Sequence record: NC_135731.1
Length of the DNA stretch: 64,000 nt
From: a phage
Reading direction: 5' to 3' (one strand)
Below the pieces are notes generated by a model, which saw only the letters and a program-made list of their open reading frames with translations, ran no database searches and had not been told where the DNA came from. The position numbers were made by a program, and so were the translations under genes. Positions 93-64,000 of the stretch are shown here, piece after piece. Each line of letters opens with the position of its first letter. Position 1 is the first letter of the stretch.

Positions 93-647
93 TTACTCCC
101 TGCTGTCAATATCAAAACTCATTGCAATACGGTATGCCTCTTCTAATGGTAAGAGTCTCCCCCACACATCCCAACCGACATCAAGCTGCCTGCCAAACAA
201 CTGTTGTGTGGTTCCGTGAGCATGACCGAACAGTTGGACTGATCCGTGAGGCTTTCTGTTCCACTTTGCAAACTGGTAATGGCTCATACAGATCAAATTC
301 TTGTTGTGGCGAAGCTCGTAATAATCTACAACCTCATGACCGAACTCTTTCATAATTCTGACAGTCGTTCTTGTGTCATGGTTGCCACGAACAAGAATAA
401 TATGTCCGTTCAACATATTTAGAATATCTGGAAGTAAGTTGTTGATATTCTTATCATTAGTGCACGCAATATCTCCCAGGTGGAACACAGTGTCTGCAGG
501 TGACACAACAGAGTTCCACTCGGCGATGATTCCAGCATTCATACTATCAAGATTGTGATCATACTGAGATCTGTGTTTTTGACATGACTCAAACTCCATG
601 ACCCGCTGGTGGAGAAAGTGTGTGTCGCTTGTTACAAAGTATTTCAT
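93..647 (-). CDS. Calcineurin-like metallophosphoesterase (putative polynucleotide 3'-phosphatase)
   Basis: ORF 93-749 trimmed to internal ATG at 647 (MKYFVTSDTHF); motifs SDTHF, GDIA, GNHD, GHAHG typical of metallophosphoesterases; starts 5 nt after the upstream kinase stop. Confidence 0.7.
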   Translation of the reverse strand: MKYFVTSDTHFLHQRVMEFESCQKHRSQYDHNLDSMNAGIIAEWNSVVSPADTVFHLGDIACTNDKNINNLLPDILNMLNGHIILVRGNHDTRTTVRIMKEFGHEVVDYYELRHNKNLICMSHYQFAKWNRKPHGSVQLFGHAHGTTQQLFGRQLDVGWDVWGRLLPLEEAYRIAMSFDIDSRE

Positions 648-654
648 ACATTCC

Positions 655-1062
655 TCATTTAAGTTTAATGCAGTTTTTAAGTTGGCGTTCCATACGATCC
701 ACAACCTCGTCTGAAGCATGAATGCTTTTATTACCGTGGCGGTTTTCAACCACGATCACGGTATAACTATACCCATAACTGATTGCCATGTCAACATATT
801 CCTGCACATGTTTTTCTTTTGTAAAAGTATTACTTACCACGATACGGTCGTATCCCATACGCATCATATCTTCTACGTTATCTTTGCACCATTTTGCTGC
901 GAGTGTTAATTTACTTGCATCCCAGTTGTAATTGCCGTCATCGTCATACCAGAACATGTCGTTCTCAAAATGTGGATACAGGCCTTCTAAAGATAGCGCA
1001 TTTGCCAGTGTTGATTTGCCAGACCCCGGCAGACCACGCACGATATATAGCATTTTAGACAT
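655..1062 (-). CDS. P-loop polynucleotide 5'-kinase-like protein
   Basis: Walker A GLPGSGKST near N-terminus, resembling T4 Pnk kinase domain; GGAGG RBS 6 nt upstream of ATG at 1062. Confidence 0.65.
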   Translation of the reverse strand: MSKMLYIVRGLPGSGKSTLANALSLEGLYPHFENDMFWYDDDGNYNWDASKLTLAAKWCKDNVEDMMRMGYDRIVVSNTFTKEKHVQEYVDMAISYGYSYTVIVVENRHGNKSIHASDEVVDRMERQLKNCIKLK

Positions 1063-1162
1063 AGCAATCCTCCGTTTTAATTTTAATGATAGTATACCTA
1101 ACTGTTTTGTTAATTTCAAGTGTTGACACTAGGTTATTTGTGTGGCAGGATAGACTGACAAA

Positions 1163-2098
1163 ATGACAAATGAGGAACGTATGATGAAGTATTTTAATGC
1201 AGATGACCTAGTAGACAAAGGTCTTGTAACCAGTCGGTATTATCCAGATCTTGGATTAAAGATCTATAAATATGCCAGAAAAGTATTCTACAACAATCTG
1301 TGGCATTTGTCTCCGCGTTTACTGGAGTGCCGAGGTATTGTTGTTGGCAATGAGGGGAATGTTGTGGCATGGCCTTTCACAAAAGTATTCAACTTAGGAG
1401 AAAACTCCACCAACCTACCGGACAGTAAACTTGTTACTGCGGTAGAGAAAAAGAACGGATTCCTCGGTGTGGTATCATCTCATAAAGGTGAACTGTTGTT
1501 CTCAACAACCGGGTCTCTTGATTCCCCATATTGTAACCTCGCAAAAGAAACCATCATGGAGCAATGTGGTAATTTAGATCTTATCAAGAAGGTTATGGGC
1601 AATGAAAACATGACATTCATGTTTGAAATTTGCCACCCTTCAGATCCGCATATTGTTCAGGAAGATCATGGCGCATATTTGATAGGTTGCAGATATAATG
1701 ATTCTGGAATAATGCTACCAGAAGCAGCTTTAGACGGGATTGCCAAATACCTTGGTGCAAAACGTCCTCACACTGTGCGTGAAATTCCGTTCAGCTATGC
1801 AAAAGAATTAGCTGCAGAAACAAGAGGTGAAGGGTATATGATTCGTAAGCCTTACTACCCTTATGATCTGCAGCTGAAGATCAAGTCTCCATACTATCTG
1901 GCACGGAAGGCTGTAATGAGGGGTAAAGCTTGGAAGATTTGGGATGATGATATCTTTAAACGTGTTGACGAAGAGTTTTACGGTATGGTAAAATTTATTC
2001 GTAGCAACTATACAGAAGATGTGTGGAATTGCTTATTAGAGCAGGAGCGTCGTGAGATACTGGACTACTATTTCCACAACGAGGACTATATGCAATGA
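1163..2098 (+). CDS. RNA ligase, T4 Rnl1 family
   Basis: Strong motif similarity to T4 RnlA: LLECRGIVV, KVFNLGEN, motif I KKNG (KxNG as in Trl1), LFSTTGSLDS. Confidence 0.85.
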   Translation: MTNEERMMKYFNADDLVDKGLVTSRYYPDLGLKIYKYARKVFYNNLWHLSPRLLECRGIVVGNEGNVVAWPFTKVFNLGENSTNLPDSKLVTAVEKKNGFLGVVSSHKGELLFSTTGSLDSPYCNLAKETIMEQCGNLDLIKKVMGNENMTFMFEICHPSDPHIVQEDHGAYLIGCRYNDSGIMLPEAALDGIAKYLGAKRPHTVREIPFSYAKELAAETRGEGYMIRKPYYPYDLQLKIKSPYYLARKAVMRGKAWKIWDDDIFKRVDEEFYGMVKFIRSNYTEDVWNCLLEQERREILDYYFHNEDYMQ

Positions 2099-2445
2099 AG
2101 AAGTGGATTGTGTGGCTTGATGATTTTAGAGATCCGTCAGATTATGGACTCCCAGACGCTCTGTGGCTAAAGAATTCTTCTGAGTTTATGGATTTTCTTA
2201 ATGATAAGAGAAAGCTCTACAGACGCGTATCTGAGTGGTATTTTGACAATGATCTAGGTGAAGTTCTTGAAGGGTACGACTGCTTCTCTGCGCTAGAGGA
2301 GAAACTTGTATTCGGAAAGCCACCACTTATTGACAACGTGATTATTTTCGTGCATACTTCTAATCCATCGGCAGCTCGTAAATTTATGCTTGCTGCTGAC
2401 TCATTCAAGAAGTTTGGAATAGAGATTAAACAAAACATCTACTGA
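2095..2445 (+). CDS. hypothetical protein (116 aa)
   Basis: ORF with ATGA overlap to ligase stop; no recognisable motif. Confidence 0.5.
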   Translation: MKKWIVWLDDFRDPSDYGLPDALWLKNSSEFMDFLNDKRKLYRRVSEWYFDNDLGEVLEGYDCFSALEEKLVFGKPPLIDNVIIFVHTSNPSAARKFMLAADSFKKFGIEIKQNIY

Positions 2446-20626: not shown

Positions 20627-20905
20627 ATGAGCTGCGAAAAATCTTTTTTCATCATCATTTACGGTAAGGATAACTGCCCACATTGTGTAAGAGCAAAAGA
20701 ATTTGCAGTCAGCAAAGGCATACCTTTCGTATACAAGACGCTAGGTGAAGGATATACAAAAGAAGAGCTTATCGAGAAGTGTAGCCCATTTGTTCCCAGA
20801 ACGTTGCCTCAGATTTTCTTAGAAAGCGACCTTGACAGTGTCCATATCGGAGGTGCTGACGATTTCATCTCTTTTGTTAAGAATGGTTTTGGAGAGAAAA
20901 AGTGA
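20627..20905 (+). CDS. Glutaredoxin-like protein
   Basis: CPHC active-site motif, thioredoxin-fold size; adjacent to nrd genes. Confidence 0.7.
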   Translation: MSCEKSFFIIIYGKDNCPHCVRAKEFAVSKGIPFVYKTLGEGYTKEELIEKCSPFVPRTLPQIFLESDLDSVHIGGADDFISFVKNGFGEKK

Positions 20906-21762
20906 AAGTTGTAAAACGGGACGGTAGAGAAGAGTTTTATAACGGAATTAAGGTGATCAAGGCGGCAGAGTCCGCCTTACTTGAGTCTGGACATACTGAA
21001 GAAGAAGCTTACCGGATTGCCTGCGCGGTTAATGAAGTTGTTGCCAATAATCTGCCAACCGACCAGTGCACGATTTCTGTAAAAAATATCCATATCCTTG
21101 TTGAAGATGCTCTTATGGATATGGGTTTAAAATGTGCAGCCCGAGAATACATCCAGTATAGACAGACAAGAGATAATAACAGAGAGGCAGGTGGAAAGCT
21201 GCTTGCAGATATTAGTGGCTTCTTGGATCGTACTTGTGATGAATTTACAAAAGAAAACGCAAATAAGCCTACTAATCATGTACACACTCATCGTGACCTG
21301 CTTGCAGGCATCCTTAGCAAACACCTTGCGTCAACACAGATCCTGCCAGATCGTGTCTCAGAAGAGCACAACAAGGGCTTCATCCATGTGCATGATCTTG
21401 ACTACTTGATCAGTCCGTTAACAAACTGTTGTTTGGTAAATTATCCGGATATGCTGGAAAACGGATTCAACATTGGCAACGCCCATGTCAGTAAGCCGAA
21501 GTCAATAGGGGTTGCAACAACAATCCTTAGCCAAATCTCTAGTGCAGTAGCTAGTGCTCAATATGGCGGTCAGACCATGAGCCATATTGATCATTATCTG
21601 GCACAGTATGCTGAAGCAACCTATGAGAAGAACCTTAAATTTTGTCAGGAACATTGGTTGCCAGATGCTGAGACTGTTGCAATGCAAATGACAGATAAAG
21701 ACGTGTTTGATAGTATGCAAACTTTGCTCTACCAAATCAATACGTTAACTTCTGTCAACGGT
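20902..21762 (+). CDS. nrdD: Anaerobic ribonucleotide reductase NrdD, exon 1
   Basis: N-terminus MKVVKRDGREEF matches NrdD; frame runs into a stop 3 nt after a group I 5' splice site (exon ends AACGGT). Confidence 0.8.
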
Positions 21763-21916
21763 TAACAAACTGGCCGTTGTAAAACTCTCCTAACCTCATA
21801 AGAGGGGTCGGTAAATCCGGCTAACGGGGAACGCTAAGGCGAAAGCTATGCCAATCCCGTGACTAGTTCTTACAGGAGTTGGAACGGTTGTAACGACTAA
21901 CGAAAGGCAGAGATGC

Positions 21917-21945
21917 TTGACAAACATTTCTGAACCAAGTAGTGT
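21917..21945 (+). promoter_or_regulatory. candidate promoter for intron-encoded HNH gene
   Basis: TTGACA-17 nt-TAGTGT inside intron. Confidence 0.35.
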
Positions 21946-21986
21946 AGGGGTTAGTTGAAATACTAACTTCGAAATGGAGAGGCTCT

Positions 21987-22520
21987 ATGAAAAAGATCAT
22001 TCTTAATGGTGAAGAATCAAACTATGTGATTGATGAGGTTGGAAACGTATACGGAAAACGTGGAATGCTACACCCAATATTGTGGGGAGGTTATGGAAAA
22101 GGTAACAAGCATGTTAAACGCCGTTATATGTACTCTTTCAACCACAAAGGTAAAAAGATTCGAATCCAAACCTCAAGGATTGTTGCCTTGTATTGTTTGC
22201 CAGATGTCCCAGAAGACCCTGAAAACTGGGAAGTGAATCATAAAGACGGCAATACATTGAATGATCATCCGTCTAACCTAGAGTGGGTTTTGCCGGAAGA
22301 TAATAAGAGACATGCTTTCCGAACAGGGCTTTGCCCAGGTAAGTGCTATAGGAAAGTGCAGGCATACAAAGGGAAAACCTTGGTTGGTGAATATCCTTCA
22401 CTCTATGCCTGTGCAAAAGCCTTAAATTTGAACGTAGGTAACGTTCATAGGGCTATCGAAGGAAATGCCGAAGGTAAGCATCTCACAATAAAGGGTTATT
22501 ATCTTATTGAAGTAGAGTAA
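21987..22520 (+). CDS. HNH homing endonuclease (intron-encoded)
   Basis: VNHKDGNTLNDHPSNLEWV HNH_3-type motif; GGAGAGG RBS. Confidence 0.8.
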   Translation: MKKIILNGEESNYVIDEVGNVYGKRGMLHPILWGGYGKGNKHVKRRYMYSFNHKGKKIRIQTSRIVALYCLPDVPEDPENWEVNHKDGNTLNDHPSNLEWVLPEDNKRHAFRTGLCPGKCYRKVQAYKGKTLVGEYPSLYACAKALNLNVGNVHRAIEGNAEGKHLTIKGYYLIEVE

Positions 22521-22559
22521 GAGATAGTCTGGCCCTGTGGAAACACAGGGAGGAGACAG

Positions 22560-23822
22560 CAGACTCCATTCATCACATTAAGTTTAGGTCTGGACACCTC
22601 AGTATTTGGTAGAATGATTACCAAAAACTACTTGAAAGTCCACAAAATGGGTCTTGGTGAAGAACGTATCACACCTGTGTTCCCTAAAGTGCTGTTCTTC
22701 CTAGAAGAGGGTGTCAACATGAACCCTGGAGATCCTAACTATGATTTGAAACGATTAGCTCTGGAATGCTCTGCAGAGCGGATTTATCCTGACTTTGTTT
22801 CTGTTCCACTAAATCGTAAAGTGACAGGCTCGACAGATGGCAAAGTAACGAGCATGGGTTGCCGGAGTTTTCTTAGCAAATACAATGACTTGGAAACAGG
22901 TGAGGAGAAATACCTCGGCAGATTCAACTTGGGTGTTGTTAGTCTTAACCTACCAATGATTGCGGCAAAAGCTAAGACGGAAGGTGTTGATTTCTTTGCC
23001 GTTCTTGACGAATACCTGGATCTTGCATACGAGGCTCACCTTGTAAGGGTTAACCGTCTAAAAGGAACAAAGGCAGGGCAGAACCCTATCATGTGGTGTG
23101 AAGGCGCTCTTGCTCGCCTGGATCCTGAAGAGAGTATTGATAAACTCTTCTATGACGGGTACGCTTCCATCAGTATTGGGTATATTGGTGTGTATGAAAC
23201 CTGTCAGATTTTGGGCAGGGAGGGTGACAAGGCTTTAGCTCTTGGAATACTCCAGCACATGAGAGATGCTTGTGAGCGATACAAGAAGGAAAGTGGACTA
23301 GCATTTAGCTTGTACGGAACCCCTTCTGAGAGTCTATGCTATAAAGCTGCAACCTGTCTGGATCGTGAATATCCTGAAGTGTTGAAGCACGAGCATGAAT
23401 ATCTCACCAACAGTTTCCATCAGCCAGTATGGATCAATAGCTCTCCTTTTGATAAGTGGAAGTATGAGGAAGGTTTTGCTATGATCTCCTCTGGTGGCAA
23501 CATCGGATATGTAGAGACACCAAATCTGAAAAACAACTTAGATGCTTTAGAGGCTCTTGTTGACTTCGGGTATAAACACATTATGTATTTTGGTATTAAC
23601 CAACCTGTGGATAAATGTCTCAAGTGTGGTTTCTCTGGTGAGTTTAGTGCAACAGCTAAAGGCTTTGTATGCCCAGAGTGTGGAAACCATGAAGAGGGAA
23701 CGATCAGTGTAATTCGACGTGTGTCTGGATACCTTTCCAGTCCTAACTCCCGTCCTTATAATAAAGGTAAGCAAGCGGAAGTTATCGAGAGAGTTAAGCA
23801 CTATGGAAGTTGTAGTTGCTGA
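22560..23822 (+). CDS. nrdD: Anaerobic ribonucleotide reductase NrdD, exon 2
   Basis: Frame encodes QTPFITLSLGLDTS continuing NrdD homology; C-terminal glycyl-radical motif RVSGYL and Cys cluster. Confidence 0.8.
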   Translation, partial: QTPFITLSLGLDTSVFGRMITKNYLKVHKMGLGEERITPVFPKVLFFLEEGVNMNPGDPNYDLKRLALECSAERIYPDFVSVPLNRKVTGSTDGKVTSMGCRSFLSKYNDLETGEEKYLGRFNLGVVSLNLPMIAAKAKTEGVDFFAVLDEYLDLAYEAHLVRVNRLKGTKAGQNPIMWCEGALARLDPEESIDKLFYDGYASISIGYIGVYETCQILGREGDKALALGILQHMRDACERYKKESGLAFSLYGTPSESLCYKAATCLDREYPEVLKHEHEYLTNSFHQPVWINSSPFDKWKYEEGFAMISSGGNIGYVETPNLKNNLDALEALVDFGYKHIMYFGINQPVDKCLKCGFSGEFSATAKGFVCPECGNHEEGTISVIRRVSGYLSSPNSRPYNKGKQAEVIERVKHYGSCSC

Positions 23823-61274: not shown

Positions 61275-61645
61275 TGATCGGTCTCCTTCTTGTTAAGTCT
61301 GAATACTGCAATAATAGCATTCCCAAGGTGCAGTGTCAAATCATTTCCAAGATACCACAACATTCCACGGTCATCTTTAATGAAAGGGTAACAATCCGGT
61401 GCCTTCCAGACATTGTACACTTTCCCAACCTGAAAGAAATCAGGCCCTGTTGGGATTTTGGTGCCAGGCCACACTTGAGATACCTGAACACACTCCACCT
61501 GCATAATAACAGGAATAGTCATGGATGTAAATGTTTTTGTTGGTTCTACTACCATAAAAGTCTCCTCTTTGCTTAACAGCACCTCCCTGTGCTGATAGTT
61601 TACATTAGTGACAATCACCCCAGTTACTACCACACAAGTATTCAC
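61271..61645 (-). CDS. hypothetical protein (124 aa)
   Basis: ORF with GGAGG RBS. Confidence 0.45.
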   Translation of the reverse strand: MNTCVVVTGVIVTNVNYQHREVLLSKEETFMVVEPTKTFTSMTIPVIMQVECVQVSQVWPGTKIPTGPDFFQVGKVYNVWKAPDCYPFIKDDRGMLWYLGNDLTLHLGNAIIAVFRLNKKETDQ

Positions 61646-61958
61646 CTGTGATCTGGAACGGGACTCCCATCATTTTAGAAGCTTGCCAGAAGCAATGTAC
61701 CACCATCTCGCCCACAGGGCTCCAGATAAGTTCAAGCTTTCCGTCATCGTTCAGGATAGGATCGTACACCGTGTTTCCGTCTCTGTCAACCACTTCGTTT
61801 CCGTTTTCATCCTTGCGTGCCTTTTTGTACTTATGACCGTCGAACACATGAAGTTTGGCCTCCTGCTCTGCCTTAAATGCTTCCAATTCTTCAATTGTGT
61901 CGAAGGTGTACACAGTCTTATACTTAGGCGTGTCAGGGACTTGAAGTTGGTACTCATC
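61605..61958 (-). CDS. DNA polymerase (family A, T7-like), 3' exon
   Basis: Begins DEYQLQV completing motif C (YYH|DEYQLQV vs T7 WVHDEIQV) and ends GSNWGDCH (T7 ends GPNWAICH); preceded by intron terminal G at 61959; no ATG needed. Confidence 0.7.
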   Translation of the reverse strand, partial: DEYQLQVPDTPKYKTVYTFDTIEELEAFKAEQEAKLHVFDGHKYKKARKDENGNEVVDRDGNTVYDPILNDDGKLELIWSPVGEMVVHCFWQASKMMGVPFQITGEYLCGSNWGDCH

Positions 61959-62800
61959 CAATAGTTCAGGTAGGTCGTTAAGCTACCCCGCACCATTACG
62001 TGCACAGCCATACAGTTTCCTGTATGGATCGGACTATCTCACTACCTTGTTACCAAGGCACCTCCCATTTCGACCGCACTTGCTGGCCTACTCTACTCGC
62101 TTCTTCGCACCAATTTATGTTGGCGCTATGCTTTCGATAGTCTCTGAACGTTACTACCAGGTGTAGTTTTTAGAGATATGTTTCCACTGTCTTCTTTGCT
62201 TTATGGCTCTGACCGTCTCATAAGGATATCCAAGATCCCTAATCTCGCATTGTCGTAGACCACTCTGTAACAGTTCGCAAATCTCCGTTACCTCATCCTC
62301 GGTCAGTACAGCGTTGGCATTATACTCACCGACTGGCCTTACTCTGAGGTCATTATCATAAGCGTGTTTGATATTTCCACCAGGGGTGGTCCATTCAAGG
62401 TTCCAGTATGCATTGTTGTATTTGTTTCCGTCCTTATGGTTCACCCATGTGAGCCTTTCAGGATCAGGGTTTGATACAAAGCATTCAGCAACCAAGTGGT
62501 GGACACCTTTTGTGCACTGCTTCCCCTCGATGAACATGGTTACGCAAAGGTAACCTCGACCATTATCAAAACAAAACATTGTTGTATGATCACGTTTCGA
62601 TAAAGGTATTGTTCCATCATCAAACACGGTATATCCGTGATAATCAACTGATCTAGCCATTTTAACTACACCCCTTTAGTCTTCGCTGCGGATTAGCATA
62701 TTGAGCTTTTACCATATTTAGGTGTAAAAGTCAACTTAGCCTTCCCGTCAATTAAAGAGGTTTTCGACGTGCATCACTGCACGAAGCCACAATGTTATTT
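61959..62800 (-). mobile_element. Group I intron in DNA polymerase gene carrying an HNH homing endonuclease gene
   Basis: 5' splice site after U of CAT (His); IGS GTGG 10 nt downstream; P10 GAT/ATT; terminal G; shares GAGATAGTC plus GAAA-tetraloop hairpin and GACTAAAGG elements with the nrdD intron. Confidence 0.7.
62154..62660 (-). CDS. HNH homing endonuclease (intron-encoded)
   Basis: VNHKDGNKYNNAYWNLEW HNH_3-type motif, paralogous to the nrdD intron endonuclease. Confidence 0.8.
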   Translation of the reverse strand: MARSVDYHGYTVFDDGTIPLSKRDHTTMFCFDNGRGYLCVTMFIEGKQCTKGVHHLVAECFVSNPDPERLTWVNHKDGNKYNNAYWNLEWTTPGGNIKHAYDNDLRVRPVGEYNANAVLTEDEVTEICELLQSGLRQCEIRDLGYPYETVRAIKQRRQWKHISKNYTW

Positions 62801-64000
62801 ATGGTAATAAATAATACGGCGAACACCTTCATCGTACCACCCACGCTTCACCATTTGATGGTGCATGAGTATCCCAACTAAGTCACACAACGATGCGCCG
62901 CCATTTTGTTGGTATGCATTAAGTAAAGAGTGTTTAGATCGGGTCCAGATAGCATGACCATCAAAAGAGTAGATAAACTTCTTACCCGTTGCTTCCCAGA
63001 ATTTCTCCAGATCTTCTTTACGCCCCTTAAGACCGGGGTTGGCATCCCAAAGTGCATCTATTACCCTTTGCCCCAACTCTGGAGAGATGTCCAGCATATC
63101 TGCAACTTTATCTTTTTGTGCCCCGTACATAACACCATACGTGATAGGTTTACCGTCGTTACGGGACACCTCTCTGCCTGCTACTTTTGTATATGCCTCA
63201 GCATTGTTTTGGTGTGCGTCTCCGTTACTTACAACATCATAATACAGGCCGTTGTCGAACTCAAAGGCACCCCAAGCCCCGATAAGCTGCTCTAAGTTGG
63301 ACCCGTCAATACCGATCTGAAAGTATCCAGGAGGAACACCCCATAGACTACGCATCTCTTTACCCATAACCACTTTAGGAGATGGTTTAGGCATGTTTGC
63401 ACAAATACTGTGTTTCTGTCTGGAAGTGTTTGTTAGCCCAGAACTTTTAGCAGGAAGCTTATGGTCAATCTTCAAACGTGGGTGATTAAGAAGACCAGTA
63501 TCAACCTTATCCTCCTTGATTGGGTCAAGGACCGATCTGCGGTTTCGCAATGATAACCACAAGACGATATCTTTAGCCATCTCTCCGTTCAATTTTTCAA
63601 GATTCGGACACAGGTGTCCAAACGTATCTTTCAGTTGCGGAGAAGTAATAAGTGCCCTGGCTTTTCTACGTATTTTCCCGAACACTTCCTTTTTAATCCT
63701 TTCGGAGTTAGGAAAGCTTCGGAACTTGTGCACGGTTGTCTGGAACTTAGCATCAGTTTTGTTCCAGAAGTTGATAATTAGGTCACAATACTCTGACTCT
63801 AAAAGCTCGTCCATATAAGCATATACTCGTGCATCAACATCTGCATCAGGTAGAGCTTTCTTCTTGCTGTCTTTAGTTACATCCTTAGTTCTCCACATTG
63901 TCGGGAGCCAGCCAGCGCTGATCAGATACCGCTTAATGTCGTCCTGATTGCTGATTTTCATAGGTATCTTGCAGTCCGGCATTCGCTTCTGCTGTAGATC
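62801..64000 (-). CDS. DNA polymerase (family A, T7-like), upstream exon, 5'-partial at window edge
   Basis: Motif A IGIDGSNLEQL, motif B RNDGKPITYGVMYGAQKDKVADML colinear with T7 gp5; frame hits stop 2 codons after the splice site, before motif C. Confidence 0.75.

Follow-up and report, generated by a model that had tools for sequence, protein, structure and literature searches.

Mobile group I introns of the sort described here are textbook biology in phages. The introns of the T7-like phages ΦI and W31 reportedly self-splice both in vitro and in vivo and encode the HNH endonuclease I-TslI, a result ascribed to Bonocora and Shub in 2004. Both introns are described as self-splicing members of subgroup IA2 that carry their open reading frame (ORF) in P6a and are inserted at Pol I site 881 (PMC3428280). 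Subgroup IA2 is distinguished by the presence of P7.1 and P7.2 between P7 and the 3' strand of P3, linked by G-U-A (PMC3428280). In Pectobacterium phage vB_PatM_CB7, RT-PCR and sequencing showed that the intron carrying CB7_50 splices (PMC7344957). Still closer are the E. coli phages WalterGehring (MZ501111, bas51_0077/0078), AlexBoehm, FV3, and CM1. The WalterGehring record contains a two-piece joined polymerase CDS with an internal "putative homing endonuclease", and the BASEL paper annotated intron boundaries deliberately. The rV5 genome paper mentions introns in the terminase gene only.

The DNA analyzed here (the window) is a 64,000 nt stretch of record NC_135731.1 from a Vequintavirus (rV5-like) E. 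coli phage with 100% identity to phiWec196. Its DNA polymerase gene is interrupted between the His and Asp codons of motif C by an 842 nt group I intron containing an HNH ORF. This intron is already known and ordinary rather than a new kind of element, because near-identical copies (97-98% identity) in sister phages have been annotated as an intron or a joined CDS. We are highly confident that it is a mobile, self-splicing IA2-type intron in a family A polymerase gene, and we infer both splicing and mobility for the window copy. All features below lie on the minus strand, and positions are those of the window.

Polymerase exons and the insertion site

Exon 1 of the family A polymerase gene occupies 62801..64000, which covers the C-terminal 400 codons of that exon, and ends at the motif C His codon CAU. 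Its frame is open from 64000 to 62801 and meets a TAA stop at 62797-62795, so that the translation ends in IIYYHK. The first-pass annotation had placed an ORF at 62795-63982. Its stop was correct, but translation does not begin at the ATG at 63982: no stop codon interrupts the frame between there and the edge of the window, and homologues of full length comprise 925 aa (2778 nt); the gene therefore extends past the edge. Exon 2 (61605..61958) contains the last 117 codons and the stop. It begins with GAU GAG, the Asp-Glu of motif C, reads DEYQLQV from its first codon, ends in GSNWGDCH, and is labeled "DNA polymerase" in several relatives. The same termini had been noted for a small ORF at 61605-61961 and are present in the sequence. 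The TTG at 61961-61959 assigned to that ORF is, however, no genuine start codon but the 3' terminal trinucleotide of the intron, and no Shine-Dalgarno sequence was found upstream of it.

The boundaries of the insert were fixed by comparison with the intron-less allele of phage JohannBauhin. In the DNA alignment, window positions 64000..62801 were contiguous with 61958..61400, and exon 1 shared 96.6% DNA identity with the uninterrupted gene as far as 62801. Because the intron-less allele aligns contiguously across both flanks, the insert is exactly 62800..61959 (842 nt), and its boundary cannot slide since the bases flanking it differ. Precise removal, with 62801 joined to 61958, restores the uninterrupted host reading frame, and the predicted ligated junction is ...UAUUACCAU followed by GAUGAGUAC... 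This junction, already proposed at first pass, is exactly that of natural intron-less alleles: the spliced protein was identical to the uninterrupted JohannBauhin protein at 516 of 518 positions, with RRIIYYH-DEYQLQV at the junction in both.

The spliced protein has the features expected of a family A polymerase. Motifs A, B, and C are colinear, with the catalytic Asp present in A and C. Alignment to T7 gp5, which had been suggested as a check, paired gp5 residues 468-658 with the spliced protein across the junction and through HDE (E 6.6e-15; YYHDEYQL versus WVHDEIQV). The match to Pfam DNA_pol_A covered profile positions 136-261 with exon 1 alone and 136-349 after joining, scoring 34.2 bits (cut-off 34.3) with a query that is only the C-terminal fragment.

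An intein was considered and rejected, as the polymerase frame meets UAA two codons into the insert. As a separate observation, relatives carry a 332-aa in-frame insertion, which was called an intein solely from its Cys start and Asn-Cys end and in which Pfam detected no domain.

Ribozyme structure and its statistical support

The intron (61959..62800) begins with AAAUAAC, ends with CUAUUG, and is absent exactly from intron-less alleles. P1 (62787..62804) is formed by CCAU of the 5' exon (62804-62801) and intron AA (62800-62799) pairing with the guide UUGUGG (62792-62787). This gives 6 bp with a U(62801)·G wobble at the 5' splice site, 100% paired and invariant in 10 related introns. A possible 4 bp P10 joins CAUU (62794-62791) to GAUG of the 3' exon (61958-61955); it retains 4 bp in seven of the ten relatives and is weaker in the other three. 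The P2 hairpin CGUGCA GUGA UGCACG follows at 62768..62783, with compensatory changes among relatives in all six pairs.

The 5' strand of P3, P4, and the P5 arm region lie within 62687..62760. Three of the six pairs of P3 (5' strand, 62760-62755) were compensatory. P4 pairs 62750-62744 with 62692-62687 around a bulged A and shows an exchange between CGGG/UCCG and CUGG/UCAG; for the extended P5/P5a/P5b arm (62741-62695), the assignment is purely by inspection. The P6 stems (62686-62684 and 62150-62148) enclose the HNH ORF in the P6a loop. The 3' half of the catalytic core (62032..62147) opens with J6/7 and the 5' strand of P7, UCAGAGACUA (62147-62138), continues with P7.1 (62137-62097), whose fold in the window copy was assigned by eye, and a GUA linker, and then contains P7.2 (62088-62072), the 3' strand of P3 (62066-62061), P8 (62060-62043), and the 3' strand of P7 (62036-62032). 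P7, P7.2, and P8 covary. The intron thus has both P7.1 and P7.2, and the GUAG directly before P7.2 is invariant in 10 sequences, which places it in subgroup IA2. The region from P9 to the 3' end (61959..62027) includes the P9 hairpin with its GAAA tetraloop (62027-62008), P9.1 (62002-61991), and P9.2 (61989-61968), all three with compensatory changes, and the 3' tail GAACUAUUG. The terminal G at 61959 was set by the boundary of the intron-less allele and is kept in 11 of 11 related introns. The U·G-containing P1, P10, the terminal G, and the GAAA hairpin, all listed in the first-pass annotation, were thus located, the last of these being P9.

The Rfam Intron_gpI model (RF00028) matched the window copy along its full length (1-253) with 38.6 bits (E 4.6e-8 locally and 2.6e-6 window-wide). 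The outcome of this search, also suggested at first pass, was therefore divided: the full-model match was significant, but its score was under the curated cut-off of 50 bits, and when gathering thresholds were applied, a scan of the entire window returned nothing, the intron surfacing only with E-value thresholds. The low score can be attributed to the 528 nt ORF insert, which the model match places in P6 as an insert of 510 nt, and is a sensitivity problem, not evidence of absence. Naturally occurring alleles of this intron that lack the ORF clear the cut-off, with 75.6 bits for HMD-6, 64.7 bits for rV5, and 91.2 bits for TH18, and the HMD-6 allele is near-identical to the window core in alignment.

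Covariation was scored on a curated structure including the pseudoknot, which replaced the RNAalifold output obtained on a MAFFT alignment. Across an alignment of ten introns that occupy this site in diverse phages, 98.8% of the cells were paired, and compensatory changes were found in 30 of 57 pairs distributed over 11 helices. Slid controls gave 2-11 compensatory pairs, and none of 500 shuffles reached the observed value. The match and the covariation are far beyond chance. The P3-P9 core, including the P3/P7 pseudoknot, is thus supported by covariation, and P7 shows a U-A to C-G exchange. P4 was left out of the alignment scoring because half of the sequences have a 1 nt bulge, and was listed by regular expression instead. 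P1 and the 5' and 3' ends give no covariation support because they are invariant among relatives, being constrained by the Tyr-His and Asp-Glu codons. The RNAalifold assignment of P4/P5 was judged incorrect, and its GUCCGA/UUGGAU helix spanning the 3' splice site was rejected because it conflicts with P7.

According to the proposed mechanism, the polymerase gene would be transcribed through the intron, whose RNA would fold as a P1-P9 ribozyme with P7.1 and P7.2. Free guanosine would attack after U62801, the U of the U·G pair in P1, and the freed exon 1 would then attack after the terminal G at 61959. Ligation of CAU to GAU would yield a single 925-aa polymerase, the last 517 residues of which are encoded within the window, whereas translation of unspliced RNA would end at the in-frame UAA (62797-62795) two codons inside the intron.

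The HNH reading frame and the distribution of alleles

The ORF at 62154..62660 encodes a putative I-HmuI-like HNH homing endonuclease of 168 aa and is preceded by the Shine-Dalgarno-like sequence AAAGGGG (62677-62671). Its identification as an HNH endonuclease at first pass held: it matched PHROG 59 "HNH endonuclease" (E 9.3e-38) and I-HmuI (PDB 1U3E; E 4.5e-6), which is its closest solved structure, with VHHLVA...NHKDGNK.NN...NL.W aligned. It thus combines the HNH (ββα-metal) motif with homology to characterized intron-encoded HNH enzymes. In HMD-6, a 14 nt hairpin takes the place of the ORF at the same position.

Three allelic states were found among sister phages, on the basis of 122 related phage records sampled every third: approximately one-quarter had the intron with the ORF, one-quarter an ORF-less intron, and one-half no intron. 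The introns are also mosaic: the 48 nt at the 3' end are identical between the rV5-type and window-type introns, yet the P8 of the former is unrelated. Four of five intron-less alleles displayed clustered synonymous changes adjoining the insertion site, four of them consecutive within the next 12 nt; the sequence after the site is GATGAGTACCAA in JohannBauhin and GACGAATATCAG in typing phage 4 and slur16. Such changes would be expected under endonuclease pressure and may represent resistance mutations. During mixed infection, polymerase alleles lacking the intron would be nicked or cut by the HNH endonuclease close to the insertion site, and repair off the intron-bearing allele would copy the intron and flanking exon sequence into the cut allele.

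Alternatively, the intron may splice while its HNH ORF no longer serves as a homing enzyme, being inactive or, for example, excluding the markers of competitor phages, so that the intron spreads vertically or by ordinary recombination. The persistence of ORF-less versions in approximately one-quarter of relatives would fit this explanation, as would the Pfam HNH_3 score of 17.7 bits, under the cut-off of 24.8, and the report that I-HmuI-type enzymes also cut intron-containing DNA (PMC3428280). However, about 30 records contain the ORF in intact form at 96-100% conservation, and its HNH core (HH..., NHKDGN, N..W) aligns with that of I-HmuI. The patchy presence and absence of the intron, together with the mosaic introns, fit ongoing homing, and the synonymous changes beside the site also speak against a non-homing ORF. 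We therefore consider loss of the homing function unlikely and retain homing by the HNH endonuclease as the preferred explanation.

Same-site introns occur in Vequintavirinae, Pseudomonas Pakpunavirus, Aeromonas Plateaulakevirus, and Vibrio phages, and the endonuclease cargo at the site is interchangeable, consisting of several HNH lineages, a LAGLIDADG gene in PVP-SE1, or none. It is an even bet that the His/Asp-Glu site of motif C hosts a single, widely dispersed IA2 lineage and that the rV5-like population shows an active homing cycle in snapshot. If so, this site would offer a convenient natural system for investigating how homing endonuclease genes and introns come together and by what means targets escape.

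Annotation of the locus and comparison with known introns

A second explanation is that the gene is split without RNA splicing, an endonuclease cassette having broken it into halves that would each be translated on their own and come together again as a two-subunit enzyme. Many records list the polymerase as two distinct CDSs named "DNA polymerase", an ORF finder assigns exon 2 a TTG start, and the HNH-associated interruption CB7_245 of CB7 did not splice; the precedent cited in that study is Aeromonas phage Aeh1, in which NrdA is split by mobE into two subunits (PMC7344957). Against this, the TTG belongs to the intron end and lacks a preceding Shine-Dalgarno sequence, and the break lies inside the catalytic HDE triplet. 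Moreover, the ORF is surrounded by a complete, conserved ribozyme core with compensatory changes in 30 pairs, and the homologous CB7_50 intron splices. Introns without the ORF (rV5, HMD-6, TH18, and Vibrio phages) still have this core, which would be inexplicable if the insert were just an endonuclease cassette. A split gene is thus very improbable. Least credible of all is a decayed pseudogene whose role in replication has passed to another polymerase, as raised at first pass: exon 1 stops prematurely relative to T7 gp5 and the window's GenBank record gives "hypothetical protein" for all four ORFs, but both exons share 99.6% protein identity with the intact gene of a sister phage and have no frameshifts, tblastn found no second family A polymerase in the window, the DNA query matches one place per genome, and the intron-bearing WalterGehring, AlexBoehm, and FV3 are viable isolates.

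The reading of the short ORF at 61605-61961 as the final exon of a polymerase gene interrupted by a group I intron just before motif C is therefore supported by the intron-less alleles, the ribozyme covariation, and the full-model Rfam match. The intron was missed only by the record of phiWec196 itself (LC739542), in which all four ORFs of the locus are labeled "hypothetical protein", and by the original rV5 annotation. In phiWec196, three of these ORFs should be replaced with one essential 925-aa DNA polymerase gene and an intron-encoded putative homing endonuclease, the "TTG-start small ORF" at 61605 being no separate gene. The rV5 type genome, in which the polymerase is truncated to 775 aa, requires the same correction, since the published protein stops at the intron. 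The window copy otherwise adds one further member to a well-known class, the mobile IA2 introns that carry HNH endonucleases and interrupt DNA polymerase genes of phages. Its wider value is modest and lies in the more than 100 sequenced sister phages, which display all stages of the homing cycle at a single site.

Compared with known systems, the window copy shows no difference of substance from the introns of WalterGehring, AlexBoehm, FV3, and CM1, which share 97-98% DNA identity with it over a 2.6 kb region and contain the same 842 nt insert and HNH ORF; only the annotation differs. The CB7 intron (Certrevirus, Vequintavirinae) occupies the same site, IIYYH/DEYQ, and has a homologous ribozyme core. 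In contrast, it carries a different HNH ORF (384 nt), apparently in the P5 arm rather than P6a as judged from the displayed sequence, and the CB7 polymerase gene has a second intron further upstream, whereas the visible part of the window's gene has one intron only. Motif C of E. coli Pol I is H881-D882-E883, so that site 881 is the His of HDE. On this numbering and the published site-881 statement, we take the ΦI and W31 insertion site to be the same as that of the window. The ΦI and W31 introns, likened here by published description, probably belong to the same site lineage too, although their hosts are podoviruses unrelated to rV5. The SPO1 and SP82 polymerase introns, which encode I-HmuI and I-HmuII, are likewise IA2 introns with an HNH nicking endonuclease in a phage family A polymerase gene, but they occupy a different site, 674 in the fingers subdomain (PMC3428280), and their phages infect Gram-positive hosts.

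Boundaries of the insert in the polymerase gene

The 2.6-kb polymerase region of the window was 100% identical to that of Escherichia phage phiWec196 (LC739542), whose record labels all four ORFs of the region "hypothetical protein", and 95-98% identical to that of approximately 120 other rV5-like phages of the genus Vequintavirus. Sixteen records named "Campylobacter phage" (MG0656xx, host C. jejuni) showed 94-96% identity to this E. coli Vequintavirus region, and the names or hosts of these records look doubtful.

The polymerase frame on the - strand contained no stop codon between the window edge at 64000 and 62801; directly past 62801 it read AAA UAA. Because the frame is open to the edge, the ATG at 63982 is not the polymerase start; full-length homologous genes are 2778 nt long (925 aa). 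BLAST alignment with the uninterrupted allele of the sister phage JohannBauhin matched window 64000..62801 to locus positions 501..1700 and 61958..61400 to 1701..2259. The JohannBauhin side was gapless across the two segments, indicating that the extra block is exactly 62800..61959 (842 nt). Exon 1 ends with U and the insert with G, while the insert starts with A and exon 2 with G; since the flanking bases differ at both ends, the junction cannot slide.

The protein obtained by joining 62801 to 61958 was identical to the uninterrupted protein at 516 of 518 positions, and both read RRIIYYH-DEYQLQV at the junction. The proposed junction is thus that of the intron-less allele, and the small downstream ORF (61605-61961, - strand; "TTG", then DEYQLQV...GSNWGDCH and a stop codon) is confirmed as the last exon, being contiguous with exon 1 in JohannBauhin. 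T7 gp5 aligned with the spliced protein through the junction, HDE included (YYHDEYQL/WVHDEIQV, E 6.6e-15), so that the break separates the His of motif C from its Asp. Against Pfam DNA_pol_A, exon 1 by itself matched profile positions 136-261, and the joined exons matched 136-349. No other family A polymerase was found within the window.

Ribozyme core and endonuclease ORF

An Rfam scan at gathering thresholds reported no match, whereas at E-value thresholds Intron_gpI matched 62810..62009 over the whole model (1-253) with 38.6 bits (E 4.6e-8 local, 2.6e-6 for the whole window). The covariance search therefore gave a full-model match, but one below the Rfam cut-off of 50 bits. In this alignment, the P6 hairpin accommodated the ORF as a 510-nt insertion. 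Natural ORF-less introns at the same site exceeded the cut-off, namely those of HMD-6 (328 nt; 75.6 bits), which has a 14-nt hairpin (CAUCC-GAGA-GGAUG) where the ORF would stand, and rV5 (276 nt; 64.7 bits). The related TH18 intron scored 91.2 bits. P7.1 and P7.2 were present and linked by an invariant GUA, which makes the intron a member of subgroup IA2 under the criterion cited in PMC3428280.

With the ORF-less intron as query, relatives were found in the polymerase genes of many phages. Each of these same-site introns is preceded by ...UACCAU (Tyr-His) and followed by GAUGA or GACGA (Asp-Glu); they are carried by TH18, SSE-121, A73, CR9, CB7, and PVP-SE1, as well as by Vibrio phages 424E50-1 and qdvp001, Pseudomonas phage SPA01, and Aeromonas phage 2L372D. 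Ten intron cores were aligned with their ORFs excised, and a curated structure (P1, P2, P3, outer P4, P6, the P7 pseudoknot, P7.2, P8, P9, P9.1, and P9.2) was scored. Standard pairs occupied 98.8% of 570 cells, and both-sided changes occurred in 30 of 57 pairs, compared with 2-11 when partners were slid by 1-3 columns. None of 500 shuffles equalled the real alignment in pairing, in the number of compensatory pairs, or in covariation score. A compensatory exchange in P4 converts CGGG/UCCG to CUGG/UCAG. P1 (CCAU-AA with UUGUGG), with the U·G at the splice site that had been described earlier, did not vary, in keeping with the coding constraint on it. The suggested P10 pairing (GAUG/CAUU) held as 4 bp in seven of the ten sequences, but was weaker in the others. 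The full-model match, the covariation, and the ORF-less alleles above 50 bits together uphold the group I reading.

The 168-aa product of the ORF within the insert (62154-62660, - strand) matched PHROG 59 (HNH endonuclease; E 9.3e-38), and its nearest solved structure was I-HmuI (E 4.5e-6, catalytic motif aligned), the HNH nicking endonuclease encoded in the polymerase intron of SPO1, in agreement with its initial identification. The ORF occurred at 90% identity or more in approximately 30 phage records, and its next relatives (55% identity) were found in SSE-121-type introns that occupy the same site. These results support a mobile group I intron of subgroup IA2 that carries an I-HmuI-like HNH gene; the window copy would be expected to self-splice, and the HNH ORF product presumably has endonuclease activity. 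The homologous same-site intron of Salmonella phage PVP-SE1 (polymerase locus L022 678-1596) bears a LAGLIDADG homing endonuclease gene, not an HNH gene; within this single intron lineage, one endonuclease cargo has replaced another.

Allelic states and other interruptions

In a one-in-three sample of 122 matching records, about a quarter had the intron with the ORF (29 records covered at least 80% of the query), about a quarter had an ORF-less intron (mostly of the rV5 type), and about half had no intron. The last 48 nt of the rV5-type intron were identical to those of the window type and P8 shared only 7 of 27 positions; by sequence, the rV5-type intron is a mosaic. GATGAGTACCAA followed the insertion site (window 61958-61947) in all eight intron-bearing alleles examined and in the intron-less JohannBauhin. 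Four of five intron-less alleles had GACGAATATCAG, with four consecutive synonymous differences from GATGAGTACCAA in the first 12 nt past the site. This split fits either co-conversion and a P10 requirement in intron-bearing alleles or escape of the target from the endonuclease in intron-less ones.

A second, more upstream polymerase interruption was present in 424E50-1 (L012 844-1093), TH18 (L007 137-855), SSE-121 (L008 188-855), and CB7 (L021 524-1236), the last three coordinates being gaps between polymerase CDS pieces. It is a group I intron in 424E50-1 (93.3 bits) and an inserted ORF between two CDS pieces in the other three (in SSE-121 and CB7, one for an HNH protein). None was found in the visible part of the window's polymerase gene. 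VB-EcoM-WM (L004 1290-2285) and 241Ecol014PP (L005, same place) had a 996-nt in-frame insertion between ...NGDAH and NNA..., equivalent to window 63212/63184, which the window lacks. This insertion begins CYSGDTQILTEKGW, ends ...VAVCGN before C, and looks like an intein; no Pfam domain was found in it.

A 51-nt piece of the polymerase intron core (P4-P6-J6/7) recurred at 94% identity in sister phages (JohannBauhin MZ501083 1241-1292, and other Vequintavirus records), within or close to the gene for the large terminase; introns have been reported in the rV5 terminase gene (PMC3606486). This likeness suggests that two genes of one phage hold related introns. Within the window, the exact core motif UCAGAGACUA occurred only once. 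The window's anaerobic ribonucleotide reductase gene nrdD (20902-23822, + strand) is split into an N-terminal ORF (20902-21765), an HNH ORF (21987-22520), and a C-terminal ORF (22614-23822). Most sister phages, rV5 and JohannBauhin among them, lacked approximately 797 nt of this region, and only 27 of 120 records covered at least 80% of the query. Rfam gave a sub-threshold Intron_gpI match at 22263-22550 (27.7 bits, E 0.005), and the interruption probably represents another mobile group I intron in the window.

Besides an ORF-less rV5-type intron, 241Ecol014PP had a free-standing NUMOD4/HNH endonuclease gene (L005 3320-3967) that directly follows the stop codon of the polymerase, at a position corresponding to window ~61617. 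Free-standing and intronic endonuclease genes beside the same polymerase gene are known from T3 gene 5.3 and the ΦI intron, and this arrangement recalls both.

Comparison with known introns

Because His881 of Pol I is the H of HDE, site 881 in the T7-like phages ΦI and W31 is taken to be the insertion site of the window intron. Both phages carry self-splicing IA2 introns there, with an HNH ORF in P6a (PMC3428280). CB7, of the same subfamily, has an intron containing CB7_50 at the window's site, and RT-PCR and sequencing have shown it to splice (PMC7344957).

Near-identical genomes already have this intron annotated: in WalterGehring (98% identical), the polymerase CDS is joined from two pieces that enclose a "putative homing endonuclease", and the BASEL paper identified intron boundaries via comparative annotation (PMC8594841). 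In the rV5 type genome (L003, DQ832317), the annotated polymerase stops at the intron's in-frame stop codon, the last exon is listed as hypothetical ORFs 225/226, and the 276-nt ORF-less intron (L003 1701-1976) is unannotated. In the rV5 genome paper, the polymerase is given as 775 aa and the terminase gene is the only one for which introns are mentioned (PMC3606486), indicating that the type annotation misses the polymerase intron. The value of the present analysis lies in annotation correction and in a natural allelic series among sister phages; both the kind of element and its insertion site are already known.
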